Of a stretch of 64,000 nucleotides of DNA, positions 5,498-49,667 are shown one piece after another. This stretch comes from Pirellulales bacterium (GTDB lineage: Bacteria > Planctomycetota > Planctomycetia > Pirellulales > PALSA-1355), in assembly GCA_963733035.1 (NCBI GenBank), contig CAVTBU010000008.1, positions 448,001-512,000 on the forward strand, in the 5' to 3' direction. The notes below the pieces were generated by a model. The model searched no databases and was not told the DNA's origin. It saw only the letters and a list, made by a program, of their open reading frames with translations. Each line of letters begins with the position of its first letter. Position 1 is the first letter of the stretch. A program made the position numbers and the translations under genes.

Positions 5498-5703
5498 AGG
5501 CTGGGGATCGAGGGAAAAGCGGATACCGGAGGAAAGCAACCGGCGGTTTGTGCGAGACCCTGAAGATAACACAGCCGCGAGACGACGTCTATTCACTGTC
5601 TCGCGACGCGTACTGCCGACTGCAAATCAGCGGAATTTGTGTCCCGCGTCGCGGTCGCACGAGCCGGATGCCATAGCTTACGAAAGTTGCGCCGCGGGCA
5701 ACA

Positions 5704-8295: not shown

Positions 8296-8343
8296 GACTG
8301 TCCTCCTAGCCGGCGGTCGTGATTGTTATGTGGTCGTGCGCCG

Positions 8344-9261: not shown

Positions 9262-9308
9262 GAATTTCTCCTGGTGTTGGATCATCTGGTGATCCAACGC
9301 GCGGCGAA

Positions 9309-32432: not shown

Positions 32433-32461
32433 TTGACGTTCAATTGTTCTGTTTTCATAAT
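32433..32461 (+). promoter_or_regulatory. Sigma70-type promoter of the ROK operon
   Basis: TTGACG-17 bp-CATAAT in an AT-rich patch about 45 nt before ATG 32506. Confidence 0.7.
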
Positions 32462-32505
32462 CTTCGAGACTCCGGACTCTCCCGCTCAAGAATCCGAGCA
32501 ACCGC

Positions 32506-33731
32506 ATGCATCCTCGACCGCGTGAAACCAAGCTGGCCGCCAAGAAAAACGGAATTCTCAACGAGGTTTTCCGGCGCGGAAGCTGCTTGCGGTTCGATTT
32601 GGCGCGACGCTTGAATATCAACGCCACGATGGTCGGCCACTATGTAGAAGCCCTGGTAGCCGACGGGCTGTTGGTGGAAGGCGATCCGGCTGCGGCACCA
32701 CGTGGGCGGGCGCCGCTGCACACCAACCCCCGGCACGGCTGCTTTCTGGGGCTGGACTTCGAGGCACTGCGGGCGCGAGCCGTCTTGTGTGATTTTGCCG
32801 GCGAGGCGTTGCAGCAAAAAGAGGTCCAGTTCCGCTCCGGTATTTCGCGCGAGAGCGTGCTCAAGCAAGTCGTGGCCCTGGCCCAGCGGCTGGCCGAAAG
32901 GGCAGATCGGCCGCTGTTGTCGGTTGGTGTCGCCGCACCGGGACAGGTCGACTGCGCCAGTGGAAGAGTGCTGCACTATCGCTTGCTTCCCGACTTCGAC
33001 CAGGTACCGGTGCGTGACCGCTTCGAAGCGGTGTTCGGCCCCAAGGTATTCGTCGAGGACAATATCCGCGCGGTGGCCTACGGCGAACTTCTGCGCGGCA
33101 GCGGGCAGGGAAACGAAAACTTTCTCTGCCTGGCCATTCGATCGGGAGTGGGCCTGGGAATCGTAATCGACGGCAATCTCTACTCCGGCACGAATTCGAT
33201 GGCCGGGGAGGCGGGGTACTTTGTCTTTCCCACAGCCGAAGGTCCGCAGTTCGCCACGGATCTCGTTTCGGTGAAAGGTTTCGTTGCCTCGACGCTCAAG
33301 CTGATCAGATCGCGACAGTCTACCGAGGCCCGCCGGCTGCTAGTGGCTAAAGGCGACGACCTGATGCTTGCCGAAGTTGTGGAGGCGGCCGAGGCAGGGG
33401 ATCGCTTGTTGCGGCAACGCCTTGAGCAACTCGGCACGCACTTGGGCATGCTCGCCGCGAATCTGGCCAACCTGTTCGCCCCGGAAAAGATCGTGCTGAC
33501 CGGCGAAGTGCCGAACTGCTCGCCGTTGGTGCGCCAGCGGATGGAGCGCGCGTTTCGCCAATTCACGCTACCGACGATCCTCACCACGGCCTACTTGGAA
33601 GACGGCAGCCTCGGGGGTTTCGCCGGCGCGCTGGCGCGGCCTGGTTGGGCTTTGCCAAGACGTTTCCCGCGGACGAGGAGGTGTTGATTCGGCAAGCGAA
33701 CGAAAAACAGCAGGCCAAACAAGCTGGATGA
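32506..33731 (+). CDS. ROK family transcriptional regulator, frameshift near 33634
   Basis: N-terminal HTH (RFDLARRLNINATMV), GVAAPG, VEDNIRA..GE, SGVGLGIV..AGEAG. Restoring one G gives GALGAA and a stop at 33731. Confidence 0.88.
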
Positions 33732-33777
33732 GCACGAAACTCAAACCAATGCACGGCCGGCGAACGAGGGCAATGTC

Positions 33778-34440
33778 ATGAACTTGTTTCTAGATAGCGC
33801 GAAGGTTGACGAAATCCGGCACGCGCTCGAAATGTGGGACGTGGATGGCCTCACGACGAATCCGCGGCACATTCAAGCTGCTGGCAAACCGTTCCGCCGC
33901 GCGATTGCTGAAATCGCCGAACTATTTGCCGGCACGAATAAGCCGGTCAGCGTCGAAGTGAATCCGCATCTGACCGACTGGCGCAAGATCGTCGCCGAAG
34001 GCGTTGAGTTGAGCAAGATCTCCACGAACTTTGTGGTCAAAGTCGGGGCCAGCGAGAGCGGCTTTAAAGCTATCCGCGAACTGACCGCTCAGGGAATTCG
34101 CGTCAACGCGACGCTAATCTTTACCGTCGCACAGGCATGGCACGCGGCCCGGGCTGGTGCGGCGTATATCAGCCCGTTTGTTGGCTGGAAGGAACAATAC
34201 GGCGACGCTCCCGACACGCTGATTCCCGATCTGCGGATGATGCTGGACGCCCACGGTTACGAAGCCCAGATCATCGCCGCGGCCATCCGCAACAGCCGAC
34301 AAATCGCCGACGCCGCGACTGCCGGAGCGCACTGCGTAACCGCCAGACTGGCCGTCTATCAAGAGAGCTTCGCCAATCCTTACACCACCATGGGCGAGAA
34401 GATCTTTCAGAGCGCCTGGGACGCCACGCCAGAAAAGTAA
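33778..34440 (+). CDS. Transaldolase, sulfofructose-transaldolase (SqvA/SftT)-like
   Basis: D6, TTNPR30H, E60, Schiff-base K88, SPF134VGW137, AAA169IR171. Ordinary small transaldolases read TTNPS, SPFVGR and ASIR. Confidence 0.85.
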   Translation: MNLFLDSAKVDEIRHALEMWDVDGLTTNPRHIQAAGKPFRRAIAEIAELFAGTNKPVSVEVNPHLTDWRKIVAEGVELSKISTNFVVKVGASESGFKAIRELTAQGIRVNATLIFTVAQAWHAARAGAAYISPFVGWKEQYGDAPDTLIPDLRMMLDAHGYEAQIIAAAIRNSRQIADAATAGAHCVTARLAVYQESFANPYTTMGEKIFQSAWDATPEK

Positions 34441-34495
34441 GTGAGCGGTTCGAAACGCGTCGGTTGTGAACTCGTCATTCAAAGGGAGACACGAA

Positions 34496-35974
34496 ATGAA
34501 AGCACACGACTTCTCACGACGCGAGTTCATCAAGACCAGCGCGGCGGCCGGGGCAGCTGCCAGTTTCCTCGAAGCACCGTCGCCAGCGCGGGCCGCCGAT
34601 GCGAACCAGCGGCTGCGAATCGGCGTGATCGGCGCGGGGAACCGTGGTTTCAACACGCTCACCAAGACTCTGGTCCGACTGCGAGGTATGGGGCGAAATA
34701 TCGATCTGGTGGCAGTCGCTGACGTGTACAGCGTGCATCGCCAGCGGTTTGTCGACTTCGTCAAGGAGAAGACCAGCGTGACGCCGAGCACGTTCATTGA
34801 CTATCGCGAGCTGCTGCAGGACAAGCGCGTCGATGCCGTCGCCATCGCCACACCCGATCATTGGCATGCCAAACAGACGCTCGACGCACTGGCCGCCGGC
34901 AAACCCGTCTACTGCGAAAAGCCGATGACGCACACCGTCGACGAGGCCAAGCGAGTCGTCGCGGCATGGAAATCGAGCGGACTCGCGATGCAGGTCGGCG
35001 TGCAATCGACCAGCTTGCCGGTCTGGGACATGGCCCGCGAGATGATCGATGCCGGCAAGCTCGGCAAAGTCGTGCAGTTTCAAACGGAGTGTGCCCGCAA
35101 CGGCACGTTCGGCATGTCGCGGCACAACGTGATCACCAAGGAAATGACGCCCGAAACGGTCGACTTTCGACGCTTCCTGGGAGTCGAGGAAGGATTGGCT
35201 CCGGAAATGCCGTTCGATCGGGCGACGTTCGGACAATGGCGCTGTTACTGGCCGTTCGGCTACGGCATGTACTCCGACCTGTTCGTACACCGCGTGACTG
35301 GCATGCTGAAGGCGACTGGATTGCGAATGCCGGGCCGCGTCGTCGGCGGCGGGGGAATCTTTCTCGAATACGACGATCGCGAAGTGGCCGACGTGGCCTC
35401 GATCATCGCCGACTTCCGCGAGGGGGTGCAGGGGCTGGTTAGCAGCACGATGGTCAGCGAGGAACTGAAGTTGGACCATCTCATCCGTGGCCACTACGGA
35501 CTCTTGCGCTTCGACAAGAATTGTACCGGCGACAGCGGCAAGGGAACGTTCGAGTTCATCCCAGAACGGCCGCAAGTGACACTCGACAGCAAACTGACCC
35601 GCGAGAACTTCGAAGCCAAGGCGGAACACAATATCGTTACCACACACATGGGCAACTGGCTCGACGCGATCGACGCGGGCAAGCCCGCCATGGTCAACAA
35701 TGATCCGGAACTGGCTGCCGCGGCCGTGACGCTGGTGAACCTGGCGGTCCGCAGCTATCGCGAAGGCAAAGTGTTTCATGTCGACGCCAGCGGCAACGTC
35801 AGCGACGGCAACGGCAGTTGGGCCGCCGGTTGGGAAAAAATGTCGAAGGAGAGGGCCAAGCCGCATCACGTGCCCGGCTGGGCGGCCGGTGATACCGGCA
35901 GCGTGTTGCGTCCGCCCGACTATCAAAAACTTGCCGGCCCGTGGATCGATGGGAAACCGCCCGAGGCGTCATGA
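34496..35974 (+). CDS. Tat-exported Gfo/Idh/MocA oxidoreductase
   Basis: SRREFIK Tat motif, IGAGNRG, IATPDHWH, YCEKPM. Confidence 0.9.
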   Translation: MKAHDFSRREFIKTSAAAGAAASFLEAPSPARAADANQRLRIGVIGAGNRGFNTLTKTLVRLRGMGRNIDLVAVADVYSVHRQRFVDFVKEKTSVTPSTFIDYRELLQDKRVDAVAIATPDHWHAKQTLDALAAGKPVYCEKPMTHTVDEAKRVVAAWKSSGLAMQVGVQSTSLPVWDMAREMIDAGKLGKVVQFQTECARNGTFGMSRHNVITKEMTPETVDFRRFLGVEEGLAPEMPFDRATFGQWRCYWPFGYGMYSDLFVHRVTGMLKATGLRMPGRVVGGGGIFLEYDDREVADVASIIADFREGVQGLVSSTMVSEELKLDHLIRGHYGLLRFDKNCTGDSGKGTFEFIPERPQVTLDSKLTRENFEAKAEHNIVTTHMGNWLDAIDAGKPAMVNNDPELAAAAVTLVNLAVRSYREGKVFHVDASGNVSDGNGSWAAGWEKMSKERAKPHHVPGWAAGDTGSVLRPPDYQKLAGPWIDGKPPEAS

Positions 35975-36043
35975 CGCGGAGTGCGGTTGGTCTGCGCTTC
36001 GTGGCTGGAGAATCGTCACTTGTAACCTGTTGCATACTGAGAA

Positions 36044-37279
36044 ATGGATATCAACGCCAACTTGACGGCCGAACGTCCCACTTTTGTCACGCACCTCGAG
36101 TGCGGTCTGAAACAGGACCGCTACGAGCCGGATTGTCTGCAGGGTCTGTCAAAAGCCAATAGGCCCCTATTGGTGAAGTATGACTTGGACGCGCTCCGAG
36201 GTGCCGTGACCAAAAGTGAGTTGGCCTCGCGCCCGCCCGATCTGTGGCGGTATCGCGAGTTTCTGCCGCTTCGGCGTGCCGAGAACATCGTCAGTCTGGG
36301 CGAATGCCACACCCCGCTCATTCCACTGACGAAACTGAAGGCCGGCAGCGGGGAGCTATTCATCAAGGACGAAGGGCGACTTCCGACCGGCTCGTTCAAG
36401 GCCCGCGGTCTGTGCATGGCCGTTTCGATGCACAAGGAGTTGGGCGTCAAGAAGATCGCCATGCCCACCAACGGGAACGCCGGCGCGGCCCTGGCCGCCT
36501 ACGCCACCCGCGCAGGCATCGAAAGCCATGTCTTCTGCCCGGAAGACACGCCAGAGATCAACGTCCGCGAAATCGCAGCCCAGGGGGCGAAGGTGTGGCG
36601 GGTCAACGGTCTGATTAATGACTGCGGCCGCATCGTCGGCCAGGGCAAGGAAACCATGGGCTGGTTCGACTTCTCGACGCTCAAGGAGCCGTATCGCATC
36701 GAAGGCAAAAAGACGATGGGTTTGGAACTGGCTGATCAATTCGGTTGGAACGTGCCAGACGTGATCTTTTATCCGACCGGCGGCGGCACTGGCTTAATCG
36801 GCATGTGGAAAGCGTTCGCCGAATTGAAGGAGATCGGCTGGCAAACGGGCAAGTTGCCCCGTATGGTGGCCGTACAAGCGAGCGGCTGCGCGCCGATCGT
36901 CAAGGCCTACAACGAGGAGAGCGAGCACGCCGAGTTGTGGCAAAACGCACACACGGTCGCGGCGGGAATTCGCGTGCCGGTAGCGGTCGGCGACTTTCTC
37001 ATTTTGCGTGCGGTGCGCGAGAGTGGCGGCTTTGCGACGGCGGTCGACGATGAAGCCATTCTGGCCGCCCGCGACGAAGTCGCCCAGCGCGAAGGCTTTT
37101 TGATGTGTCCCGAAGGAGCGGCAACCTACGCAGCCTACAAGCAGGAACTCGCGAGCGGCCGCATCAGTCCCTCCGAGACGGCTGTTTTGTTCAATTGCGC
37201 GAGCGGTTTGAAATACGAACTGCCCCCCATGCCCCGGACGCTCGATTGCACACGGCCAGTTGACTACACGCAACTTTAA
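36044..37279 (+). CDS. Threonine synthase-like PLP enzyme
   Basis: SLGECHTPL, KDEGRLPTGSFKARG, TNGNAG, YRIEGKKT, YPTGGGTG. Confidence 0.88.
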   Translation: MDINANLTAERPTFVTHLECGLKQDRYEPDCLQGLSKANRPLLVKYDLDALRGAVTKSELASRPPDLWRYREFLPLRRAENIVSLGECHTPLIPLTKLKAGSGELFIKDEGRLPTGSFKARGLCMAVSMHKELGVKKIAMPTNGNAGAALAAYATRAGIESHVFCPEDTPEINVREIAAQGAKVWRVNGLINDCGRIVGQGKETMGWFDFSTLKEPYRIEGKKTMGLELADQFGWNVPDVIFYPTGGGTGLIGMWKAFAELKEIGWQTGKLPRMVAVQASGCAPIVKAYNEESEHAELWQNAHTVAAGIRVPVAVGDFLILRAVRESGGFATAVDDEAILAARDEVAQREGFLMCPEGAATYAAYKQELASGRISPSETAVLFNCASGLKYELPPMPRTLDCTRPVDYTQL

Positions 37280-37300
37280 AAAGACCCGCGAAAGGTTTTG

Positions 37301-38059
37301 ATGTACGTACCACGAATCCACAGGTTGCTGTTGGTATTAGCGATGTTGCCGAACATCGCGGCGGCTGCCGAGGCGGCGTTTCCGGGCCAGCGTAGCGAGG
37401 AACAATTGCGGCGAGACGGTTTCACGCCGCTGTTTGCTGGCAAGTCGCTCGACGCCTGGGACGTGAAACCCTGGCACGAAGGTCACTGGGTCGCGCACGA
37501 TGGCGTGATCGACTACGACGGTAAGTCCGCAAACAAGCGTGGGCAGGACGCCTCTCTGTGGACCAGGCAGGACTTCGGTGACTGCGAGCTGTATGTCGAA
37601 TGGCGATTGCCGGCCGAACCGGAAATGAAACCGCACCCCATCGTGCTCTACAACGGCGACTTCCTGATGCAGGAGGACCACCCGAGTCAGCGTGAGACGA
37701 GGATGCGGCGCGACGCCGGCGACAGTGGTCTGTACTTTCGCGGCAGCACGAAGTGCCAGGCCAACATCTGGAGCCAAGAGCTCGGCTCCGGCGAGATCAA
37801 CGGATACCGCACCGATAAGGGCATGCCGCCCGAGGTCCGCCGCGCGTGCATTCCAATCAAGCAGGCCGATCGGCCGTTGGGCGAGTGGAATGCGTTTCTG
37901 ATTACGCTGCGCGGAGACGGTATGACCACCATGCTCAATGGCGAAACGGTGATCAACGTTCCTCATCTTCCCGGTTTGCCCGAGCGTGGTCCCATCGCCC
38001 TGCAGCACCATGGCGACCCGGCGCAGTTTCGACGGATTTGGATCAAGGAGCTGGATTGA
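37301..38059 (+). CDS. DUF1080 (3-keto-glycoside hydrolase family) secreted protein
   Basis: Signal peptide, GFTPLFAGKSL..W, GDSGLYFRG, LGEWN, GPIALQHHG..FRRIWIKEL. Confidence 0.88.
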   Translation: MYVPRIHRLLLVLAMLPNIAAAAEAAFPGQRSEEQLRRDGFTPLFAGKSLDAWDVKPWHEGHWVAHDGVIDYDGKSANKRGQDASLWTRQDFGDCELYVEWRLPAEPEMKPHPIVLYNGDFLMQEDHPSQRETRMRRDAGDSGLYFRGSTKCQANIWSQELGSGEINGYRTDKGMPPEVRRACIPIKQADRPLGEWNAFLITLRGDGMTTMLNGETVINVPHLPGLPERGPIALQHHGDPAQFRRIWIKELD

Positions 38060-38060
38060 A

Positions 38061-39119
38061 ATGACGGCAGCGGCGATTCGATTCGGCCTGATAGGTTTTG
38101 GGGCGTGGGGCAAGTGCCACGCCGAGGCCATCAAGAACACGACCGGCGCGGAATTGGTGGCGATTGCCGCCAAGTCGGAGGCGACCTGCGCCGCGGCGCG
38201 CGAGGCGTTTCCAGCGGCGGCGGTTTGCTCGGACTATCACCAGCTTCTAAGTCTTCAAAATGTGGACATCGTCGATATCGTGCTGCCGAGTTTCCTGCAC
38301 CACGAGGTGGCCTCGGCGGCCCTCGAAGCCGGCAAGCACCTGCTGCTTGAAAAGCCAATGTGCCTGTCGGTTGAAGAGTGCGACGACTTGATTCGCCTCG
38401 CCAAGCGTAGCGAGCGGCTCGTGGCCGTCGGGCACGAGCTGCGCTTGTCGTCATTGTGGAGCAGGGTGAAACAAATGATTGACGAGGGGTACGTCGGCCG
38501 GCCGCAGTACGCGCTGGTCGAGTTGTCGCGCAAGCCGTACCGCCTCGGTGCCGACGGGTGGCGGTATGACATCGGTCGCGTGGGGAACTGGATCCTCGAA
38601 GAACCGATTCATTTTTTCGACCTGGCACGCTGGTACCTCGCTTCGGCCGGCGATCCGGTTTCGATTTATGCCGCCGCCAATTCGCGGCAGCCTGACCACC
38701 CTGAACTGCAGGACAACTTCAGCGCGATCGTGACGTTCGCTGGTGGCGCGTATGCCGTGGTTTCGCAGTCGCTGTCAATGTTCGAACACCATCAGACGGT
38801 CAAGGTGGCCGGTACCGAGGGATCGCTGTGGGCCAGCTGGAGCGGCGCGATGGATCGCACGCGACACCCCACGTTTTCGTTGAAGGGCTCCAATGGGGAT
38901 CAGGTTCACGAAATTCCAATTGAGAAGATCACCGGCGAAGTGTTCGAGCTGGAAGACCAGATGGCGATGCTGGTCAGTGCGATCCGCGATCACAGGCCGC
39001 TTGCGACGAGCGGCGAAGACGGCAGATGGTCCGTCGCCATGTGTGTTGCGGCCGAGCGTTCCGTCGAAACAGGGCAGCCCGTCTTGACGAGTGAAATGAC
39101 CAAGGAACCTGTGGAATGA
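38061..39119 (+). CDS. Cytoplasmic Gfo/Idh/MocA oxidoreductase
   Basis: IGFGAWG, LLEKPM, GHELR, EEPIHFFD. Confidence 0.9.
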   Translation: MTAAAIRFGLIGFGAWGKCHAEAIKNTTGAELVAIAAKSEATCAAAREAFPAAAVCSDYHQLLSLQNVDIVDIVLPSFLHHEVASAALEAGKHLLLEKPMCLSVEECDDLIRLAKRSERLVAVGHELRLSSLWSRVKQMIDEGYVGRPQYALVELSRKPYRLGADGWRYDIGRVGNWILEEPIHFFDLARWYLASAGDPVSIYAAANSRQPDHPELQDNFSAIVTFAGGAYAVVSQSLSMFEHHQTVKVAGTEGSLWASWSGAMDRTRHPTFSLKGSNGDQVHEIPIEKITGEVFELEDQMAMLVSAIRDHRPLATSGEDGRWSVAMCVAAERSVETGQPVLTSEMTKEPVE

Positions 39120-40003
39120 AGGTACAAGGCAGTAACAGCCCGGAGTGGATTTCGCGTCGCGGTTTCCTGGGCGGCGTCGTGGCCGCGACCGCCGGTTCCG
39201 CCATTACGGGCTTCTCGCTTCCCAGCCGTGCAACCGCGTCAAACGAGACGCCGCGCATCAAGAAGGCCGTCAAGTACCAGATGATCCAGGAAGATCTGCC
39301 GGTACTTGACAAATTTAAGCTGCTGGCCGACCTCGGCTTCGATGGCACGGAGATTCACGTCACGACGAAGATCGACCGCGACGAAGTCCGCCGGGCAATC
39401 GACGCGACCGGCGTGGTGGTGCATGGATTCCTCAACAGCGACAAGCCCGACCTGAAGCACGCGATTGACAGCGCGAGGTTCTATGGCGGTACGAGTGTGC
39501 TGGTGGTGGCAGGACGGGTCGACAAGGACCACGCTTACGACCAGGTTTATCGCCAGCAGCAGGAGCGAATCAAAGCCGCGCTGCCGTATGCTGAAAGCCA
39601 GGGAATCAAGCTCCTGATAGAAAATGTGTGGAACAACTTCCTACTTAGCCCTCTGGAGATGGCCCGCTTCATCGATGAGCTGGATAGCCCGGCCATTGGC
39701 GCATATTTCGACGTTGGCAACGTCGTCCGGTTCGGTTGGCCGCAGCAGTGGATTCGCATTCTCGGCAAACGGATCGGCAAGCTCGACATCAAGGAATACA
39801 GTCGCCAGAAGCAAAACAACGAGGGCCCGAGAAAAGGATTTGCCGTCGAGATCGGCGAAGGAGATTGCGACTGGCCAGCAGTACGGCAGGCACTGGTCGA
39901 CGTAGGTTACACCTCGGGCTGGGCCACCGCCGAAGTTCCCGGCGGCGACCGACAGCGGCTGGCCGACATCGCAGCGCGGATGGATCGCGTGCTGCGGTTA
40001 TGA
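39116..40003 (+). CDS. Tat-exported sugar-phosphate isomerase/epimerase (xylose isomerase-like TIM barrel)
   Basis: SRRGFLG, IENVWNNFL, YFDVGN, KLDIKEY, GEGDCDW, TAE. Confidence 0.88.
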   Translation: MKVQGSNSPEWISRRGFLGGVVAATAGSAITGFSLPSRATASNETPRIKKAVKYQMIQEDLPVLDKFKLLADLGFDGTEIHVTTKIDRDEVRRAIDATGVVVHGFLNSDKPDLKHAIDSARFYGGTSVLVVAGRVDKDHAYDQVYRQQQERIKAALPYAESQGIKLLIENVWNNFLLSPLEMARFIDELDSPAIGAYFDVGNVVRFGWPQQWIRILGKRIGKLDIKEYSRQKQNNEGPRKGFAVEIGEGDCDWPAVRQALVDVGYTSGWATAEVPGGDRQRLADIAARMDRVLRL

Positions 40004-40078
40004 CCAACACGTGAAGTCGACGTGCCATAAATCGGCGTAATGCCATTTGTTTAATCTGCGGTAGACAGCCGGACCTGA

Positions 40079-40924
40079 ATGTCACGACTACTAGAAATCC
40101 GTGAGCTGTTGAAATTGTCGCCCGCTGAAATGCAGGAGAGGGCGGGCCGCCGGCTCAAAATCTGCCCCGACATCGACTCGCTGCACCAGCACTTTGCCGA
40201 AGCGATCGCCGCGGAAATCAAGACGAACAATGCCCGGAACCGGCCGACGAAGTTGATCCTGCCGGTCGGACCGGTCGGGCAGTATCCAATTCTTGCCGAG
40301 ATCGTCAACCGCGAGGATATCAGCCTTCGGCAGTGTTGGTTCTTCATGATGGACGAGCACTGCGACGACAACGGCATCGTGCTGCCGACCGAACATCCGC
40401 TCAGCTTTCGGCACGCGTTCAACGAGCTGTTCGCAGTGCGAGTGAACGACGGCCTGATGGTTCCAGCGGAGCAAGTAATCTTTCCCGATCACCTGAACGT
40501 GCAACATCTAAAGGATCAGATCTCCGCCGCCGATGGCATCGACACAACCTACGGCGGCATTGGAATTCACGGCCACATTGCCTACAACGAGCCGGAACCG
40601 GGCGTTCGTCAGTCCGATCCCCGCCTCGTGTACCTGAACGACTTCACACGCACGATCAACGCCATCCGCGCACAAATTGGTGGCAATCTGGAAGGTCACC
40701 CGCGCAAGGGCATCACCCTCGGCATGCGTCAACTACTGGGGGCGAAACGCATTCGTCTCTATTGCCGCAACGGCATCGCGCTCGATTGGGCCAACACCGT
40801 GCTGCGACTCGCGCTGTTCGGTCAGCCGGGCGATGACTATCCGGTCACGTATATCCGTGAGCACGAGGACTATGCCATCGTGACCGATGAAGACACCGCA
40901 CGCACACCGCGTTTCGTAGTTTAG
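40079..40924 (+). CDS. NagB-like hexosamine deaminase/isomerase (atypical)
   Basis: MDEH, HPLSF, GGIGIHGHIAYNEP, ITLGMRQL, YPVT. The N-terminal loop is LPVGPVGQY. Confidence 0.82.
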   Translation: MSRLLEIRELLKLSPAEMQERAGRRLKICPDIDSLHQHFAEAIAAEIKTNNARNRPTKLILPVGPVGQYPILAEIVNREDISLRQCWFFMMDEHCDDNGIVLPTEHPLSFRHAFNELFAVRVNDGLMVPAEQVIFPDHLNVQHLKDQISAADGIDTTYGGIGIHGHIAYNEPEPGVRQSDPRLVYLNDFTRTINAIRAQIGGNLEGHPRKGITLGMRQLLGAKRIRLYCRNGIALDWANTVLRLALFGQPGDDYPVTYIREHEDYAIVTDEDTARTPRFVV

Positions 40925-40956
40925 GGGCGCGGGATCAAGGGCTAGACCAAACAAAC

Positions 40957-41667
40957 ATGAGACTCAAATTTGCTGACGAACGCGTTCTGGCCATTGTTGC
41001 CCACCCCGATGACGCCGAGCTGCTTTGCGCTGGAACTCTGGCCCGGGCCAAGGCTGACGGCGCGTCAATTGGCATCTGCGTGCTCTGTCGCGGCGACAAG
41101 GGTCAGCCGGCGGCGCCAATTGAGAATCTGGCCGAGGTTCGCAATCGAGAGATGCAGGCGGCAGCCGAGCTCTTGGGCGTGCAAGTGCTCACCGCTGGGT
41201 TTGGTGACGGAGAGTTGTTTGACTCCACCGAGGCCCGCAGAGCGGTCGTCGAGCTGGTACGGCAATTTTGCCCCACACTCGTACTGGCCCACGCGGCGAA
41301 CGACTATCACCCAGACCATCGGGCTGCGTCCGAGTTAGCGGAAGCGGCATCGTGGTTTTGTGCGTCGGCGGGGCAGAAAACCGCGTCACCGCCTCTCGAA
41401 AAACCGCCGGCTCTGTGGTGGATGGACACCGTGGAGATGATTGGGTTCGAACCGCATTTCTACGTCGACGTGACCGGATTCCTGGAACTCAAACGGCAGA
41501 TGCTTCATTGCCACCAGAGCCAGCTGGCCCGTGGGGATGACGCTGACTTTTCGCCGCTCGAGGCCGTAATGATCCGGCAATGTGAAACCCGTGGCGCTCA
41601 GGCGGGAGTTCGGGCGGCCGAGGCATTTCGACAACACGAAGCTTGGAAACGGACGAGCGCATGGTGA
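40957..41667 (+). CDS. PIG-L/LmbE family N-deacetylase
   Basis: AHPDD..GT, R..E, DYHPDH, H.SQ, AEAF. Confidence 0.92.
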   Translation: MRLKFADERVLAIVAHPDDAELLCAGTLARAKADGASIGICVLCRGDKGQPAAPIENLAEVRNREMQAAAELLGVQVLTAGFGDGELFDSTEARRAVVELVRQFCPTLVLAHAANDYHPDHRAASELAEAASWFCASAGQKTASPPLEKPPALWWMDTVEMIGFEPHFYVDVTGFLELKRQMLHCHQSQLARGDDADFSPLEAVMIRQCETRGAQAGVRAAEAFRQHEAWKRTSAW

Positions 41668-42969
41668 ACGCAAGCGGCCCGCCGCCGGAATCGAATTTGC
41701 ACGAACCCTGGTACCACGGCGTCAGTGGCTACCAGTGGCTCGTGTTGGCGATCGCCTCGGCGGGCTGGATCTTTGACGTCTATGAAGGCCAGATTTTCAA
41801 CATTACCCGCAACCAAATGCTGTCTGACATCCTGGGCAGCGAAGGAGGCGATGTAAAGAAATACGGCGACATGTTCCTCGGCATCTTTCTGCTGGGTGGA
41901 ACCGTGGGAGGACTGGCCGCGGGATCATTGGCAGACCGTTTCGGTCGGCGGCCGATCATGGTCGTCACAATCTTGATGTATTCGCTCTTCTCCGGGCTCA
42001 CCTACTTTGCAACCGAGCTTTGGCATGTCGCCAGCCTGCGGTTTCTAGTGGCGATGGGCGTTGGCGGCGAATGGGCAGTGGCGGCAAGTCTCGTCGCCGA
42101 GGTATTTCCAGCCCGGGCGCAGGCGCAAGCATCGGGCATCTTCCATGCCTCGAGTGTGCTGGGAACCTGGATGGCGGCCTTGGCCGGCATGGCCGTCGGC
42201 GCACAATGGCGGTATGCCTATCTGTTCGGCATCGTTCCAGCGCTGTTGGTGCTTTGGGTGCGTGCAAGTGTGCGCGAGCCGCGCAAGTGGCAGGAAACGA
42301 AAGCGCAGGCCGAATCCGCCAACCGTGGTGGACAACTCGGAAGCTTTCGCGACCTGTTGCTGAATCCCGTCTGGGGACCTCGAGCGTTCCTGGGAATGGG
42401 ATTGGCTGCCGTGGGATTGGGAACGTTCTGGGCGGTGACCGTGGCGGGCCAGGATTTGGCGCGCGAGCTACTGGTTCGCGGCGGCGCAAGCTCCGAGGTC
42501 GTTGCCCAGCATGCAAAATTTGCTTATGGCATCGTGCAAACAACCGGCGGGGCCGTGGGCTTGCTGTCGTTTGGTCCCCTCTGCGCGGTTCGGGCGCCGG
42601 CGAACGTTCATCGTGATTCAATTGCTGGCGTTCCTTTTCGTCCCGATAACGTGTTTCCTGCCGCAAACCTATCGCGAACTGCTCTGGCTCTTGCCACCGT
42701 TTGGATTCCTGACGCTGGGCCTGCACGCGGGCTATGCGATCTACTTCCCGGAGTTGTTCCCCACGCATTTGCGGGCCACGGGAACCAGTTTCTGTTTCAA
42801 CGGCGGACGCATCCTGGCCGTGCCGGTATTGTTTTTCTCCGGATGGCTCAAGGCGCGGGAAGGCATGGACCTGCGAGTCGCAATCTCGTCGCTGGGAGCG
42901 CTATTTCTCGTGGGTGTGGTGTTGATGCTGTTTCTACCGGAAACAAAAGGAAAAGAACTGCCTGAGTAG
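41661..42969 (+). CDS. MFS transporter, frameshift near 42586
   Basis: GSLADRFGRRP, GVGGEW, then ARFGRRR..YFPELFPTHLRATG..LPETKGKELPE in the next frame. Confidence 0.9.
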
Positions 42970-42980
42970 GCAAGACGCCG

Positions 42981-44066
42981 ATGGACAATTGGACCCTCTT
43001 CATCACGATTGCCGTGGTTATCACGGCCGCGGGCTTTGTGCAGAGTGCGATGGGCTTTGGCTACGCGATCGTGGCGCTGGCAATCCTGCCGCTGGTCATC
43101 GATATCCGCATGGCGAACATCGTGGTCTCGCTGAGCGTGATCTTGCCTTTGGGCGCTGCGGTATGGGCCTACCGCCACGAAATCGATTGGCCAACGATCG
43201 CTTGGTGCCTGACGGGTTCGGTCGTAGGGCTGGCATTCGGTTTAATCGTGTTTTCCACGATCGATGCCACCTGGCTGATGCGTGCAACCGGCGGCGTCAT
43301 CTTTTTGCTGGCGCTCGATGGACTTCGCACGCGACGCGACACCGAAACGCAACGGCAATTCTCCCACGGCTGGAGCGCCGTGGCCGGGGCGGCAGGCGGC
43401 GTGCTATCCGGGTCGATCGGCATGGGCGGCCCGCCGATTGTCGCATTTGCCGCGCGGCAGACGTGGTCGCCGGTCCGCGTCAAAGCGTTCCTGACCAGCG
43501 TGGCATTGATTCTATCCGTGCTCAAGGGGGTGGGGCTCGCGGCGACTGGTTGGGTCGACCAGGCCGTCCTGTTTTATTCCGGGGCATCCATTCCGTTCGG
43601 TTTGGCAGGCAGCCACCTGGGCGTCGTTGCCTCACGAAACATGAACCCTCAACTCTTTCGCAAAATCACGATGCTGGTGCTTCTGCTGCTGTCGATCGGC
43701 ATGATCGTTCGCGGGCAGCCGAATGGCCCAGGTATCGATAAGGCGCAAAACACCCACGGTAAGTCACGCAGTTGGTGTGCTATCGAGAGCTCGGATGATG
43801 CCAAGCACAAGGAACATCCGAAGATGACGGAAAGTGTTCGTCGAGCCTCGTACCATCAGTCCGACTGGCAGCGCCTGGAACCGGACAGCGACGAACAGCC
43901 ATCGCAGGTACTCATGCCATTGGGCCACTCCCCAAGGGAACCCTGTGGGAAACGACCGCTGTCCCGGAACTTAGGGGCAAGCAATGCGCGTCGCGGAAAT
44001 CTTGCTGGAACGAGAGCCGGCTGCCGTCGAGGAAGCCGATGTGATCGAGTACTACCTATAGGTTGA
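42981..44066 (+). CDS. TauE/SafE sulfite/organosulfonate exporter; tail after about 43750 is doubtful
   Basis: AGFVQSAMGFG, AGAAGGVLSGSIGMGGPP, about 8 TM segments. Confidence 0.88.
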   Translation: MDNWTLFITIAVVITAAGFVQSAMGFGYAIVALAILPLVIDIRMANIVVSLSVILPLGAAVWAYRHEIDWPTIAWCLTGSVVGLAFGLIVFSTIDATWLMRATGGVIFLLALDGLRTRRDTETQRQFSHGWSAVAGAAGGVLSGSIGMGGPPIVAFAARQTWSPVRVKAFLTSVALILSVLKGVGLAATGWVDQAVLFYSGASIPFGLAGSHLGVVASRNMNPQLFRKITMLVLLLLSIGMIVRGQPNGPGIDKAQNTHGKSRSWCAIESSDDAKHKEHPKMTESVRRASYHQSDWQRLEPDSDEQPSQVLMPLGHSPREPCGKRPLSRNLGASNARRGNLAGTRAGCRRGSRCDRVLPIG

Positions 44067-44212
44067 AAACGAATACTCGCCGATTCGCGGGTATCCAAGG
44101 CGACGAAGTGCAAGGCTTGTTAGACTGAATTGAGCGTCGCAAGCGACGCAGATTCGCGGAATTCTCGGCCGAGATTCTGATGGCCCGTACGAACACATGT
44201 GGAAACAACCCG

Positions 44213-45659
44213 ATGAAGCGACTCGCTTGTTTGAACTCGCCAAGTGCCATGCTCCCGGCGTTTCTCTATGCATGCTTGGCTTGGTTCCTACCTGGTGTCG
44301 CATCGGCCGCTGACGCGCGGCCGCCGAATGTGGTGTTGATCCTCGCCGATGACCTGGGCTGGTCTGACTTGGGCTGCTACGGAGCCGACCTGCATGAAAC
44401 GCCGCACATCGATCGACTGGCGCGGGACGGCATGCGTTTTACCAGCGCATACGCCGCTTCAATTTGCTCACCCACCCGCGCCGCGCTGATGACCGGCAAA
44501 CATTACGCGCGGTTGCATATGACCATCTGGTACGAAGGCTCGCTGGAGCCAGACCGCAATCACAAGCTGCGGCCGCCGCAGTCCGTGGGCAACCTGCCGC
44601 TGGACGAAGTGACGCTGGCCGAGCGACTGCACGAGGCGGGCTACCTCACGGCGCTGGTGGGTAAGTGGCACCTGGGAGACGCCGGTCACTATCCCGAGAC
44701 GCAAGGCTTCGACGTCAACATCGGCGGCACGCACTGGGGCGCGCCGCAAACTTTCTTCTATCCGTACCGAGGTGATCGCCACTACGGCCGTGAAATGCGC
44801 TACGTGCCGGACCTTCCGTACGGAGACGAGGGCGAATACCTCACCGACCGGCTCACCGACGAAGCGCTCAAGGTCATCGACCGGGCCGGCGATCAACCGT
44901 TTTTCCTCTATCTGGCGCACCACGCGGTCCACACGCCCATCGAGGGCAAGCCGAAGCTTGTCGAACACTACCGGCAGAAGCTTTCGCCAAAACTGCACCA
45001 TCAAAATGCCACGTACGCCGCCATGACGCACAGCCTCGACGACAGCGTCGGCCGAGTGCTCGCGAGGCTCGACGAGCGCAGGACTCGACGACAATACCTT
45101 GGTGATCTTTCTTTCCGACAATGGCGGGCACGTGATGCCGTTCGACGGCAAGGCCGTCACCAACAATTCGCCGTTGCGCAGCGGCAAAGGATCGCTCTAT
45201 GAGGGGGGCGTGCGCGTGCCCATGATTATCCGCTGGCCCGGCGTCACCACGGCTGGCAACGTGTGCGACGAACCGGTCTGCGTCATGGACCTGCTACCGA
45301 CAATCGGCGTAGCCGTGCAACCCTCGCGGAACAAATCTTGGACCGCGCCCGACGGCACCAGCCTCGTGCCGCTGTTGAACGGCTCAGCGGCCACGCTCGA
45401 TCGCGACGCACTTTATTTCCACTATCCACACTACTATCCGACCACCACGCCCGCGAGCGCCATCCGCCAGCGCGACTGGAAGCTGCTTGAGTATTTCGAA
45501 GACGATCATGTCGAATTGTACAACCTCAAGAACGACCTAAGTGAAGAGCACGACCTCGCCGGCGAACAATCCGAGCGCACCAGGCAATTGCGCGACAAAC
45601 TACATGCCTGGCGCCGGCAGATCAACGCGCAAGTGCCGAGCTCAGCGACCGGCGGATGA
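44213..45659 (+). CDS. Secreted formylglycine-dependent sulfatase, frameshift near 45080
   Basis: PNVVLILADDLG, CSPTRAALMTG, GKWHLG; SDNGG..GKGSLYEGGVRVP..ELYNL in the next frame. Confidence 0.92.
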
Positions 45660-45699
45660 TTTGATTTGGCGCTGGTGTGCCCACGCGGCGGCGGCTTGT

Positions 45700-48600
45700 T
45701 CAGTCGACCGGCAGCAACGTTTCGGCCAATGGATTGGTGCGGCGCAAGCGGGTGATGCCGTTGTCGTAACCGGAATAGAGTTGTTTGCCATCGGCTGTAA
45801 ACGCGGCGCACCAAGACAATCCTCGGCCGTCGGCCAGGCCACAACGCTCCTGCCCCGTTACAGCGTCCCAAAACGAGAGCTTGTAGCCGGTCGTAACCAG
45901 AGTTTGGCCATCAGCTGAGATCGCGACCGCGAGTAGCCCGCCGTGATGAGGGCGGATCGTCGTGAGGCACTCGCCTGTGGCGAGGTCCCAAATTCGGGCG
46001 GTGGCATCGGAAGAACAAGACGCAAGCTGCCGACCGTTCGGGTAAAACGCCACGGAGTTGACATCCTGTTGATGGCCGCGCAACGTAGTCAGCAGTTGGC
46101 CGCTGGAGGTGTTCCACAAGCGAATTGCGCCATCGGCCGCGCCGGATGCCACACGGGAACCATCAGCGCTGGCCGCCACACTCTTGGCGGCCGTTGCTAG
46201 TTGCGCGAGCACACGGCGTTTGGTTCCCATCGAGCGGACGTCCCACACGATAACCGCGCCGTCATCGCCGGCCGAAGCCAACGTCGTGCCGTCTCCCACC
46301 AGGGCCAGGCTTCGCACGCAGTCCGTGTGGGCGCGCCATGCGCCGAGTTGCTTCGCGGATTCCACGTTCCACGCCCGCGTCACTCCATCGCGGCCGGCCG
46401 AGAAGGCCGTTTGGCCGTCGGAAGTGAGCACCAGGCTGCAAATCTCGCCGTGGCCGGCAATCCACGTATTTCGCAAGTATCCGTTGGGAGTGTACCAAAG
46501 TGAGATTCGATCTTTGCGACTGCCCGTGACGAGCGTTTCACCATCTGGTGTGGCCGCCAGCGCAACGATTCGTTCGGGCGGGCCGATCAGTTCTTCGGCA
46601 ACGTGTAATCCGCGCACGACGTCCCACACGCGGATCTCGCCGTCGGCTCCGGCAGATACCAGAGATTTGCCGTCGCGAGAAAACGCCAAGGAGAAGACCC
46701 CGGCACGCTCGTGACCCGACAACACGTTCACCAAGCTGCCCGTGGGCGCGTCGAGAAGCGTTATCTCGCGAGCCCACTGGCCGAATGCGATCGTCATTCC
46801 GTCGGGCGAGACAGCCACGGAATTGATGGCATTCGACGGATTGTTGGCGAACCCAGACTTCGACTTCAGAGAAGGAAATTCCCACAAGCGGAGGCGTTCG
46901 CCTCCGGAGACGAGTGTTCGCTGATCGGGAAAGAATGCCAACCCACCAATCGGCTCTTCATGCGCATCGGAAATGCTCCGGCACACACCGCTCGATGTAT
47001 CCCACACGCGGATGGTGCGGTCGAGCTTGTAGGCACTTGACACCAGGTACCGTGCGTCGCGCGAGAAGAGCAGGGACGAGATTGTGTCGGTGTGTCCCAC
47101 CAATTGGTTGCGAATCTTGCCGGTCGTGGCGTCGCAGAGTGTAATGCGGGGCAAAACTCCATCGCCCAAGAAGAATATTCCGCTCGTTGCCCAAGCCAAA
47201 AGCTTTCCCTCAGGAGAGGCGGCCAAAAACTTGATGGCCGTCACGTCGCGAGCGAACACATCCGATGTGCCCGCCTCGAGATTCCAGCGTCGCACCGTCC
47301 AATCGTTGCCGGCCGAAAACAAAATGTTGCCGGCGGGCAGAAAGGCGACGGCGTTCACCGGCCCCTTGTGGCCGCGCAATACGGAGTGCAGCGACCAGTC
47401 AGCGGCGCGCCAAATCCGAATCGTTCCATCGTCGCTGGCCGAGGCCAGCAACGCACTGTCGGGCGAGAATACAACCGAGTTAACTTGTCGGGTGTGACCG
47501 TTCAGTACCCGGTGACCGCGATGGGTCACTCCCGTCAGATACCGCCAGGTGAAATCGCGGAGATGCTCGGGACAGCGCTGCGGGTCGTGCAACAGTCCGA
47601 ACGCTTCGCGCGGCACATGCAGGGCGAGCTGCGTTGCCCGTGCAAGTTGGGCATTGTACGCACTGCGAAGAGCCATTTGCCGCTCATGCTCGGCCTGGTG
47701 GCTGGCCTGAGTTGCCAACGAGAGAGCCGCACCGGCGCGCACGGCAAAATACGTAGCCGTCGCCGTGCCACCAACCAGCGTGAGCACGACCGCCGCAGCC
47801 AGACCGGTTACGACGGGATTGCGACGGCACCACCGCCAGGCTCGCTCAACCCGCCCTACCGGCCGCGCGTGAATAGGTTCGCCGCGCACGAAACGGTCCA
47901 AGTCGTCGGCCAACGCCATTGCGCTCGTATAGCGCCGCGCAGGCTCCTTCTCCAAACACTTCAAGCAGATCGTTTCCAGGTCGCGCGGAACGTCGCTGCG
48001 AAAACGGCGCGGCCGGGGAGGTTCGTCGTGCACGATTTGTTGCGCCAACATCGAGGGGCTGCCACGAAACGGCAGCTCGCCGGTCAGCATCTCAAATAGC
48101 ATCACGCCCAATGAATAAATGTCGCTCGCACCCGTGCAATGATGCGCGGCGCCGCGTGCCTGTTCCGGCGACATGTAAGCGACCGTACCAAGCACTTGAC
48201 CGTCGAGCGTCAACGTCGCGGCCGTATCCCGTTTTGCCAGGCCGAAGTCCAGCAAATGCGGTTGATCAAGAGCGTCCACCACCACGTTCGCCGGTTTCAG
48301 ATCGCGGTGCACGATGCCGGCGCGGTGGGCATGATCCAATCCCAGGGCGATCGCCGCGCACAGACGTGCACACCGCGTGTAGTCCACGTCTTGCGCCGCC
48401 AGCCATTGCGAAACCGAACGGCCCGCGATCAATTCGCTAACGATGTAACATTGATCGCCGTCCTGGCCGATCTCGAAGATCGCTACGATGTCGGGATGTT
48501 GCAACTGCGCGGCTGCGCGAGCTTCGCGAAGAAATAGCTCTGTTTCCCGCGCTGACAACTCGCCGCGGCGGGGTAGTTTTACCGCGACACGGCGGTCGAG

Positions 48601-49038: not shown

Positions 49039-49667
49039 CGCTTGCTTAACCAAAGCGAAGACCGCACCAAACACTCACGCAGAGCCGTCTTGCCACGCTG
49101 CACCAGCCCACGAACCGCGCCCGGCGTGCGCTGCATGGCGTCGGCCGTTTCTTCCAGCGACATTCGATCCAGACAGTGCATTCGAATCGCATCGCGCTGA
49201 TCCGACGGCAGCGCCGACACGCCCACTTGCACGGCCAGCACGGCTTCTTGCTGCGCGGCGTTTTGGCTGGGAGTGCCGATGTCGCCTCTCAGCAACTCCA
49301 CGAGTGGCAACCATTGACTCCCCTCCTGGGCGCCGCCATCGGCGACGCGTTGAAATTCGCCGCCACGCTTTTTGCGGCGAGCACGTCGCAAGGCATCTTG
49401 TAGCCGATGCTCGGCCACCGTTTCGAGCCACGCAACAAAAGCCTGCTCACTCTGCGGGGCAATGGTGCCAATATCGCGAAACACCTGCACGAACGTGTCC
49501 TGCAAGATATCGTCGACGCCGAGTTGTGAGCGCAGATCGCTGGGCAACTTTCGACCGATTTGCGCCGCCAAGCGGTCGCAATAAAAGAATAGCAGCCGCT
49601 CAAGCGCCGCCCGATCACCCGCCACGGCATGGGCCAGCAACTGCTCGTTGAGTGTCGAAGCCAACAT
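49035..49667 (-). CDS. ECF sigma-70 factor, coupled to the kinase
   Basis: GDRAALERL, DDILQDTF, FVAWL, LPSDQRDAI..SLEETADAM; ATGA overlap with the kinase. Confidence 0.9.
   Translation of the reverse strand: MLASTLNEQLLAHAVAGDRAALERLLFFYCDRLAAQIGRKLPSDLRSQLGVDDILQDTFVQVFRDIGTIAPQSEQAFVAWLETVAEHRLQDALRRARRKKRGGEFQRVADGGAQEGSQWLPLVELLRGDIGTPSQNAAQQEAVLAVQVGVSALPSDQRDAIRMHCLDRMSLEETADAMQRTPGAVRGLVQRGKTALRECLVRSSLWLSKR

Follow-up and report, generated by a model that had tools for sequence, protein, structure and literature searches.

A planctomycete gene cluster that joins a sulfofructose-type transaldolase to a deacetylase and a NagB-like protein: a candidate sulfoglycolysis variant for an aminosugar

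The stretch analyzed here, hereafter the window, is 64,000 nucleotides of a Pirellulales bacterium genome (Planctomycetota; GenBank assembly GCA_963733035.1, contig CAVTBU010000008.1, positions 448,001–512,000). On its forward strand, positions 32506–45659 hold 12 tightly packed, co-directional genes separated by gaps of −104 to +113 bases, whose predicted products are listed in Table 1. Gene calls rest on Pfam and NCBIfam profile scores, and the nearest structures were taken from a search against solved PDB structures. The initial annotation of this DNA had described a co-directional cluster without a sugar kinase, and both statements stand: all of the parts it named are present, and no sugar kinase is found among the 12 proteins by Pfam or NCBIfam. 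The argument developed below is that these genes may form a sulfoglycolysis pathway with an aminosugar front end, in which a PIG-L deacetylase and a NagB-like protein would supply a sulfofructose-type transaldolase.

Table 1. Genes and other features of the cluster, with positions in the window.
Feature	Position	Strand	Basis
Sigma-70-like promoter match upstream of the ROK gene	32433..32461	+	TTGACG, 17-base spacer, CATAAT
ROK-family repressor, NagC/Mlc type, not a kinase	32506..33687	+	ROK domain 112.8 bits
Transaldolase TAL_FSA, sulfofructose type (SqvA/SftT-like), 220 residues	33778..34440	+	Structure match and residues
GFO/IDH/MocA oxidoreductase with Tat signal (Gfo1), 502 residues; candidate periplasmic glycoside 3-dehydrogenase	34466..35974	+	
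Second threonine-synthase-family PLP enzyme (ThrC paralog)	36044..37279	+	NF006050 639.8 bits
DUF1080 protein with Sec-type signal; candidate 3-keto-glycoside lyase/hydratase	37298..38059	+	Pfam 107.5 bits
Cytosolic GFO/IDH/MocA oxidoreductase (GFO2); candidate keto-sugar reductase	37986..39119	+	Substrate-domain similarity
Xylose-isomerase-like TIM barrel with Tat signal; candidate 3-keto-glycoside 1,2-lyase	39116..40003	+	Analogy with AL1/BT1
Divergent NagB-type candidate deaminase/isomerase; proposed sulfofructose-forming step	40079..40924	+	TIGR00502 71.5 bits
PIG-L/LmbE-family N-deacetylase	40957..41667	+	Pfam 105.2 bits
MFS transporter, anion:cation symporter kind, frameshifted near 42585	41643..42969	+	NCBIfam symporter models
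TauE/SafE-family sulfite or organosulfonate exporter	42981..44066	+	Pfam 101.3 bits
Sec-exported S1 sulfatase near family S1_16, split at 45080	44180..45659	+	247.5 bits to 9fo1

The transaldolase, first described as SqvA-like, matches that description in both fold and residues. Its best solved matches are the three Bacillus megaterium BmSF-TAL entries (8bc2-4, ∼220 bits), followed by a Thermotoga transaldolase (141.5 bits), with the Escherichia coli FSA at ∼88 bits. For BmSF-TAL, a catalytic triad of D6, E61 and K89 is described, with N111 and S133 orienting the sugar and W138 belonging to a "sulfonate-orienting WAR motif" (PMC11659671); transaldolases of phosphate sugars have R-S-R in its place. 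The window protein retains the first two groups as D6, E60, K88, N110 and S132, and carries W-A-R as W137, A169 and R171, together with Arg30.

I then aligned the window transaldolase with 47 relatives from all loci collected (loci carry L numbers, and genomes G numbers, throughout). W-A-R is found in 40 of them, including every one of at least 44% identity. The seven relatives of lowest identity (37–42%) have R-S-R in six cases and R-A-R in one, and the residue at position 30 is R or K where W-A-R is present, S or T elsewhere. Six of these seven (L084–L089) come from a sample of 301 genomes drawn evenly from the phylum, and I take them to be ordinary phosphate-sugar transaldolases; the seventh, L018, adjoins a NagB-like gene. 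As a positive control, W-A-R relatives of 44–48% identity sit in textbook sulfoquinovose clusters. A canonical cluster of this kind from the same phylum (L082, G188:C1:2871000-2890500) holds GH31, DUF4867, an SftI-like isomerase and a TRAP transporter, along with a YihU-like reductase, the W-A-R transaldolase, Dak1/Dak2, Fe-ADH and LacI. Three other loci (L076, L077 and L080) have ROK, GH31, an SftI-like isomerase, Fe-ADH and a split transketolase, and L083 has EamA, a split transketolase, RpiB and Fe-ADH. On this sequence evidence the window transaldolase is of the sulfofructose type, and it is predicted to transfer a C3 unit from sulfofructose to glyceraldehyde-3-phosphate.

The second enzyme of interest is a distant relative of glucosamine-6-phosphate deaminase, NagB. 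Its TIGR00502 score lies far from the cut-off of 236.9 bits, Pfam Glucosamine_iso is not reported for it at E ≤ 0.01, and it matches the Bacillus subtilis NagB (E = 1.6e-12) and the Vibrio NagB with E-values between 1e-12 and 1e-11. It nevertheless keeps the MDE motif (Asp72) and the GHIAYNEP motif (His143 and Glu148), and has Arg at both cationic positions of the anion site (those of Arg172 and Lys208), in E. coli NagB numbering. The altered anion loop noted at the outset is a property of the whole family: the phosphate loop TG(S/G)TP of NagB has a two-residue deletion in all NagB-like subtypes, reading LPVG--PVGQY in the window protein, and every subtype also has a five-residue insert after MDE. 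This family is small, amounting to 57 representatives at E ≤ 1e-30 among 1.84 billion.

Directly downstream lies the PIG-L gene, whose product scores well above the Pfam PF02585 cut-off of 28.2 bits. Its AHPDD (residue 15) and HPDH (residue 118) correspond to the metal-binding motifs AHPDD and HxxH of this family. It does not attain BshB1 equivalog status (135.5 bits versus 182.5), and its nearest solved relatives are TT1542, BC1534 and diacetylchitobiose deacetylase. The genome from which the window derives (G000, 92% complete) also holds a separate canonical NagB (317.8 bits) and a NagB fusion (251 bits), as well as a canonical thrC on contig C10 (TIGR00260, 215.8 bits). Since these canonical genes lie elsewhere, the NagB-like and ThrC copies of the cluster are dedicated paralogs. 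The fusion, also on contig C10 (L035 412-2295), is a 627-residue protein of the NF002557 type with Glucosamine_iso and PIG-L domains, and thus ties the deacetylase and deaminase activities together in this same genome.

Several components of canonical sulfoquinovose clusters have no match in G000. This is the case for the GH31 sulfoquinovosidase, which had been reported as not visible and is found neither in the cluster nor in the rest of the genome, and for the SftI/SqvD isomerase (NF048012). DUF4867 (SftX) and the YihS-type isomerase (PF07221) are likewise without a match in G000, and these two results are weak, as the DUF4867 control matched in none of 14 control genomes, and the YihS search also left unmatched its control in E. 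coli, a species that carries YihS. Among the loci compared, SftI-like isomerases were found in L041 and otherwise only beside transaldolases of at most 56% identity to that of the window (L072, L076, L077, L080 and L082), and none lies beside any transaldolase of at least 62% identity.

The combination of transaldolase, NagB-like and PIG-L genes recurs at 62–81% identity in Planctomycetota genomes, metagenome-assembled genomes (MAGs) and metagenome contigs, contrary to the lack of conservation that the initial annotation had named as refuting its proposal. I surveyed it in three ways. A survey centered on the NagB-like gene, with one genome per species and partners counted by tblastn thresholds, gave 26 loci, 15 of which have at least 3 kb on both flanks. 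A metagenome scan centered on the transaldolase gave 32 loci, mostly on contigs of 1–3 kb; in 26 of these the transaldolase is at least 60% identical to that of the window, and four of the 26 have at least 3 kb on both sides (L050, L060, L063 and L068). The sample of 301 genomes, which includes G000, G070 and G095, provided the third.

In the NagB-like survey, loci at 70–87% identity belong to Pirellulaceae, Planctomycetaceae, Fuerstiella, Singulisphaera and Kolteria novifilia Pan216 (L014), with a Verrucomicrobiales MAG at 70% and Bryobacterales and Kiritimatiellota at 51–55%. The transaldolase (at least 60% identity) and PIG-L (64–78%) are each present in 11 of the 26 loci, followed by ROK (orthologs of 60–80% identity) and MFS in six each, the Tat-signal oxidoreductase Gfo1 (65–75%) in five, the cytosolic GFO2 (63–73%), DUF1080 and a 2-hydroxyacid dehydrogenase in three each, the ThrC paralog in two, and the TIM barrel in one, with an ortholog of 76–77% identity in K. 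novifilia; no aldehyde dehydrogenase (ALDH) was counted. When only the 15 well-flanked loci are considered, the transaldolase is present in seven and PIG-L in eight. Four distant loci (NagB-like identity 50–56%), together with L012 and L015 (70–74%), have neither.

Seen from the transaldolase, a NagB-like gene is present in 10 of the 26 metagenome loci, three of them of the window type (type A) and seven of a type B that is ∼35% identical to it and is transcribed divergently together with PIG-L. The same loci contain a GabD-type ALDH (9/26), PIG-L, ROK and the ThrC paralog (4/26 each), the cytosolic GFO2 (3/26) and an EamA exporter (2/26); of the well-flanked ones, L050 and L060 have the NagB-like gene. 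In the phylum sample, 14 of the 301 genomes have a NagB-like match at E ≤ 1e-30, and three (G000, G070 and G095) have a transaldolase of at least 71% identity, the next best being 47% identical. All three have a NagB-like gene within 6 kb of the transaldolase; in G070 and G095 the two are ∼225 bases apart, with PIG-L (61–62%) adjoining. Gene order differs between loci, which points to selection on the gene set rather than inherited synteny alone.

Other genes accompany these clusters. A KduI/IolB-like cupin, 64–75% identical between loci, recurs in the transaldolase clusters of L014 (13294-14274), L060, L068 (8217-9023) and L075, and is not in G000; it might play the part of SftX, the DUF4867 cupin of the canonical clusters. 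Large periplasmic dehydrogenase-like proteins lie beside the NagB-like gene in L003/L050 (10864-15237), L004, L013, L007 and L009, and are either DUF7133-HEAT-cytochrome c proteins of ∼1015 residues or GSDH-cytochrome c proteins. A conserved protein of 436 residues, with no Pfam or NCBIfam match, accompanies these dehydrogenase-like proteins in L003, L050 and L009.

Four of the remaining genes were first listed only as glycoside-cleaving candidates, and they correspond part for part, location included, to a known four-enzyme system that releases sugars through 3-keto intermediates. In that system, AL1 is a TIM barrel that carries a sugar-phosphate isomerase annotation, acts as a lyase and has a Sec signal, AL2 is a DUF1080 lipoprotein with 3-keto-alpha-glucoside lyase and hydratase activity, AL3 is a Gfo/Idh/MocA oxidoreductase with a twin-arginine translocation (Tat) signal that makes the 3-keto sugar, and AL4 is a cytosolic Gfo/Idh/MocA protein (bioRxiv 10.1101/2024.03.25.586180). 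The window holds these four families too, divided in the same way between periplasm and cytosol: two exported lyase candidates, a Tat-signal oxidoreductase (SRREFIK in Gfo1; SRRGFLGG in the TIM barrel) and a cytosolic oxidoreductase. Similarity to the models of the BT-type proteins is low (BT_2158_fam 116.7 bits for Gfo1 against a cut-off of 750, and BT_2159_fam 64.6 against 650), and the nearest solved relatives of Gfo1 are 8tdf, 8tdh and DgpA. By analogy, then, the four proteins may work like the AL1-AL4/BT system without being its orthologs.

Two other functions were considered for these proteins. The substrate domain of GFO2 is nearest to 1,5-anhydro-D-fructose reductase (2glx, 51.7 bits), with the GH188 sulfoquinovosidase SqgA (8qc2 and 8qc3) reaching only 32–34 bits on the C-terminal substrate domain, and a GH188 assignment was ruled out on this similarity. 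An inositol-type reading (IolG/IolE/IolB) was set aside, given the Tat signals on Gfo1 and the TIM barrel, and since no IolD-type thiamine-diphosphate enzyme was found by Pfam.

The first gene of the cluster encodes a ROK protein. Its scores with the closest models, NagC (100.5 bits) and Mlc (82.8 bits), fall far short of the respective cut-offs. It reads GLDFEAL at the site where ROK kinases have a glycine-rich ATP motif. It had been credited with a helix-turn-helix, and a winged-helix region is indeed present at the N-terminus, although a weak one, HTH_24 scoring 18.7 bits and so below its cut-off. The MFS protein matches models of sialate, aromatic-acid and galactonate symporters at 54–98 bits, all below cut-offs. 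The window cluster and those of L003/L050, L006, L008, L011, L028, L044/L090 and L065 contain or adjoin a sulfatase or FGE gene. The sulfatases themselves were tried as a conserved orthologous core and rejected: that of the window is S1_16-like, that of L003 belongs to another subfamily, and identities between clusters are 24–39%.

For the C3 product of the transaldolase, the related loci are more informative than the window. A GabD-type ALDH (504 bits to E. coli GabD) abuts the transaldolase in relatives, with EamA following it in L060 and L068. Known sulfolactaldehyde dehydrogenases are annotated GabD or SlaB (PMC10599462), and the known sulfo-TAL clusters contain, besides a TauE-type exporter, a sulfolactaldehyde dehydrogenase or reductase. 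The earlier observation that a sulfolactaldehyde dehydrogenase is missing thus applies to the cluster of the window and does not extend to its relatives, given the nine metagenome loci with a GabD-type gene.

The ThrC paralog is a second copy in G000, and its NF006050 score exceeds the cut-off of 303 bits, its TIGR00260 score being 161.5 against 167.1. It directly follows the transaldolase in L013, L019, L054, L055, L059 and L063, and is itself followed by a PGDH-like 2-hydroxyacid dehydrogenase in L013 and L055, with RidA in L013. In the phylum sample, 11 of the 301 genomes have an ortholog of at least 69% identity, a larger number than for the transaldolase. In G070, a complete genome of the same class, a separate module (L091, G070:C1:4943000-4958000, 5084-11541) contains MFS, ThrC (79%), a 2-hydroxyacid dehydrogenase, MFS and TauE, and lies ∼4.8 Mb from the cluster with transaldolase, NagB-like and PIG-L genes. 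The ThrC paralog (70–71%) sits directly between two sulfatase genes in L094, L096 and L097 (from G183, G263 and G248), which represent three genomes of a single family; an FGE gene is near it in L094, the one of these three loci scanned for FGE. By analogy with CuyA/CuyZ, a C3 sulfo-acid branch ending in sulfite or sulfate release by this ThrC-type enzyme is possible, if somewhat doubtful.

Two genes of the cluster are interrupted. The sulfatase appears as two overlapping frames, with an extra base at 45080; omitting this base gives a single frame of 492 codons with the same stop at 45659, and a contig from sequencing run X1 lacks the base and is otherwise identical over 161 bases (one contig, depth 3.6). 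For the MFS gene, the K. novifilia ortholog aligns to 41691–42587 (80% identity) and then, in another frame, to 42583–42966 (76%), so that the last ∼125 codons of the listed open reading frame (41643–42965) are in the wrong frame. The frameshifts at ∼42585 and 45080 are thus probably assembly indels, judging by one X1 contig for the sulfatase and by the ortholog alignment for MFS, and the two genes are probably not pseudogenes, an alternative considered and rejected since base 45080 is missing from the X1 contig. The true start of GFO2 is probably later than 37986, near 38061.

Around the cluster, the upstream flank carries an AMP-binding enzyme and a DUF1571 protein on the opposite strand, and the downstream flank (45700–49074, minus strand) a Ser/Thr protein kinase of 1124 residues that is fused to WD40 propellers; no link between these genes and the cluster was seen. 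A listing of sequencing runs that cover 35800–45700 gave no RNA run. The promoter-like site upstream of the ROK gene did not hold up: a scan of the region gave two such sites where 3.3 were expected, so that 32433–32461 carries no evidence of function, and a terminator scan of the region was not above chance either.

An N-acetylated, anionic, unphosphorylated hexosamine is the substrate suggested by the pairing of deacetylase and deaminase, together with a NagC-like regulator and an MFS protein of the anion type. That it carries a sulfo group is suggested by the transaldolase signature, the GabD-type ALDH, the exporters, and sulfatase or FGE genes as recurrent neighbors. The substrate is therefore most likely a 2-acetamido-2-deoxy-hexose with a sulfo group at C6. 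A 6-deoxy-6-sulfonate (N-acetyl-sulfoquinovosamine) is somewhat favored over a 6-O-sulfate, because sulfatases would make a carbon-wasting route for sulfate esters unnecessary, and because the pocket residues equal those of the sulfoquinovose enzymes.

The pathway that I propose, and to which I would give about an even chance, is a kinase-free variant of sulfo-TAL sulfoglycolysis for such a 2-acetamido-6-sulfo hexose, with release of the sugar by a 3-keto-glycoside system in the periplasm. What the sequences show is the gene content and its conservation, the residue patterns and the export signals, and each chemical step is inferred from these. In the periplasm, the sulfatase would trim sulfate esters, and the Tat-signal 3-dehydrogenase, the Tat-signal TIM-barrel lyase and the DUF1080 lyase/hydratase would free the sugar from its glycoside. 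The MFS symporter would import the anionic sugar, the 3-keto group of which would be reduced by the cytosolic GFO2. PIG-L would then remove the N-acetyl group, and the NagB-like enzyme would deaminate and isomerize the resulting 2-amino-6-sulfo aldose to a 6-sulfo ketose. From this ketose, the transaldolase would transfer C1–C3 to glyceraldehyde-3-phosphate, giving fructose-6-phosphate and a C3 sulfo-aldehyde. The latter would be oxidized, by the GabD-type ALDH in relatives (G000 has no dedicated one), and the C3 acid may be either exported or desulfonated via the ThrC paralog, with TauE exporting the acid or sulfite. The NagC-like ROK protein would act as repressor of the whole cluster.

A number of observations weigh against this proposal. 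Glyceraldehyde-3-phosphate and fructose-6-phosphate must fit into the transaldolase pocket as well, and so its residues cannot discriminate among a sulfonate, a sulfate ester and other anions. TauE, assumed at first to be a constant part, is present in only one of the 26 NagB-like loci and none of the 26 transaldolase loci at the tblastn thresholds used; among related loci its only ortholog is in L006 (50% identity), with a 33% homolog in the G070 module that holds ThrC. Neither TauE nor the sulfatase is a core part. In two of the well-flanked metagenome loci, L063 and L068, the available DNA contains neither a NagB-like nor a PIG-L gene. Conversely, NagB-like orthologs of 48–61% identity also occur without the transaldolase: in L038 (1034-6938) and L039 (7993-13532) they (55–61%) accompany a split transketolase, PfkB kinases, a DASS anion symporter, Amidohydro_2 and ROK, and Amidohydro_2 lies beside the NagB-like gene in L038, L040 and L041, the last also with GH4, an FGGY kinase and an SftI-like isomerase. 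This suggests that the same NagB-like entry enzyme feeds transketolase- or kinase-type variants. Close orthologs of the ALDH, 2-hydroxyacid dehydrogenase, RidA and EamA that are linked to related clusters are missing from G000 itself, whose best matches to that ALDH are only 34–37% identical, none of them within the cluster. The related genomes are also kin, and the locus counts therefore overstate independence. As for the substrate, natural 6-sulfo-quinovosamine was not found in the literature searched, where matches were judged mostly by title and the start of the abstract and subscription journals were mostly outside the search; the occurrence of sulfoquinovosamine in haloarchaeal glycans, put forward initially, found no support in the same literature. 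A 2026 review of sulfoquinovose catabolism contains none of "deaminase", "NagB" or "Planctomyc".

Other explanations were weighed against the same evidence. The cluster could be a plain sulfoquinovose pathway, in which the NagB-like protein replaces the isomerase without deaminating, the 3-keto system replaces GH31, and PIG-L has a side role in acyl or acetyl removal. Sulfoquinovose is the abundant natural sulfosugar; runs X1 and X2, which carry parts of the window, are labeled soil metagenomes; the transaldolase signature is identical to that of enzymes from sulfoquinovose clusters; NAD-dependent sulfoquinovosidases outside GH31 are already known; and Pfam finds no other isomerase candidate in the cluster. 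I nonetheless consider this unlikely, since PIG-L is linked to the NagB-like gene as tightly as the transaldolase is, lies beside type B as well, and is fused to NagB in G000, and since the NagB-specific GHIAxNEP and MDE motifs are kept. NagB, moreover, is not known to isomerize glucose-6-phosphate. A pathway for an anionic aminosugar without sulfur, for example an N-acetyl-hexosaminuronic acid whose keto-uronate would be cleaved by a transaldolase-type enzyme, would account for an MFS protein that resembles sugar-acid and sialate symporters, for the KduI/IolB-like cupins of L014, L060, L068 and L075, and for the lack of conservation of TauE. It would not account for W-A-R and R30 being identical to those of enzymes from bona fide sulfoquinovose clusters, for the sulfatase or FGE genes in or beside many of the clusters, or for TauE/EamA exporters and a GabD-type ALDH, which suit a dead-end sulfo-C3 product, and it appears quite improbable.

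It could also be that there is no single pathway, and that families abundant in planctomycetes lie by chance next to ordinary GlcNAc-6-phosphate or pentose-phosphate genes acting on phosphorylated substrates. Gfo, DUF1080, TIM-barrel and sulfatase genes are indeed numerous, with several non-orthologous copies in related loci, and the sulfatases of different clusters are not orthologs. The core, however, is kept at 62–81% identity in shuffled orders across families, in complete genomes and metagenome contigs alike; G000 has its own canonical NagB, NagB fusion and canonical ThrC; the window transaldolase lacks the R-S-R phosphate motif of its low-identity relatives; and the cluster has no kinase. 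Chance juxtaposition is thus very improbable, and for the proposed aminosugar variant of sulfo-TAL sulfoglycolysis both the pathway logic and the conservation hold. The initial interpretation is supported in part. A more far-reaching version of this proposal, that N-acetyl-sulfoquinovosamine is a real but unrecognized natural sulfosugar, that the cluster is its catabolic pathway, and that a new desulfonation branch runs via the ThrC paralog, the PGDH-like dehydrogenase, RidA and TauE, is rather doubtful. If true, it would be the first deaminating sulfoglycolysis, fed by oxidative (3-keto) cleavage of a glycoside, and desulfonation would proceed from sulfolactate via sulfopyruvate and cysteate to sulfite, the organism mineralizing the sulfonate with no C3 sulfonate excreted.

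The conserved coupling of transaldolase, deacetylase and deaminase implies that sulfofructose is made in a new way or that sulfo-sugar nutrients include a second class, namely N-acetyl-hexosamines that are sulfonated or 6-sulfated, and would widen the known microbial recycling of sugar-bound sulfur. No literature combining sulfoquinovose, Planctomycet- and transaldolase was found, in a search mostly outside subscription journals. The NagB-like family, with its shortened anion loop, could serve as a marker for such a route in soil and marine metagenomes. K. novifilia Pan216, a cultured strain whose complete chromosome is on record, is a candidate test organism. For the ThrC paralog, with its association with TauE and sulfatases, the analysis offers a concrete functional hypothesis as well.

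Several known systems resemble parts of this cluster. CuyA is a cysteate sulfo-lyase that occurs with the TauE-family exporter CuyZ, and its likeness to the window and to the G070 module lies in a PALP-fold PLP enzyme beside a TauE-family exporter. With TIGR03844, the model of the ThrC-derived cysteate synthase, the window ThrC paralog scores only 60.7 bits against a cut-off of 324.9, and the clusters hold no aminotransferase. The AL1-AL4 or BT2156-2160-type system shares its four families and their compartments with the window, but there the TIM barrel has a Sec rather than a Tat signal; in the window the genes are embedded in a sulfoglycolysis cluster and score far below the BT models (bioRxiv 10.1101/2024.03.25.586180).

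The NagA/NagB route for GlcNAc-6-phosphate is alike in that a 2-acetamido sugar is deacetylated and then deaminated and isomerized to a ketose, with the NagB motifs and a NagC-like ROK protein in common. The window cluster differs in having no kinase or phosphotransferase system, in using PIG-L in place of NagA, and in a NagB-like protein far below cut-off with a shortened loop, and its ketose would go to a sulfofructose-type transaldolase rather than to glycolysis. A PIG-L-type deacetylase has a precedent in the diacetylchitobiose deacetylase route of Thermococcales. The closest known system is the sulfo-TAL (sulfo-SFT) pathway of Bacillus aryabhattai SOS1 / B. megaterium DSM 1804 and Eubacterium rectale, which comprises SftA, G, I, T, D or R, E and X. 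The two have in common the catalytic and W-A-R residues of the transaldolase, the lack of a kinase, an MFS importer, a TauE-type exporter and a repressor within the cluster, and, in relatives of the window, a GabD/SlaB-type aldehyde dehydrogenase. The regulator is of the GntR type there and a ROK protein here, and the window has the ThrC paralog in addition, joined in relatives by the PGDH-like dehydrogenase and RidA. SftI, GH31 and DUF4867 are replaced in the window by PIG-L, a divergent NagB and the four-part 3-keto-glycoside system. Sulfoquinovose is the only sugar for which sulfoglycolysis is known, and all described routes begin with a sulfoquinovosidase and an isomerase or dehydrogenase. 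The sulfo-TAL kind of sulfoglycolysis is a known one, and its aminosugar front end, built from PIG-L and a NagB-like protein, is most likely a so far undescribed variant.

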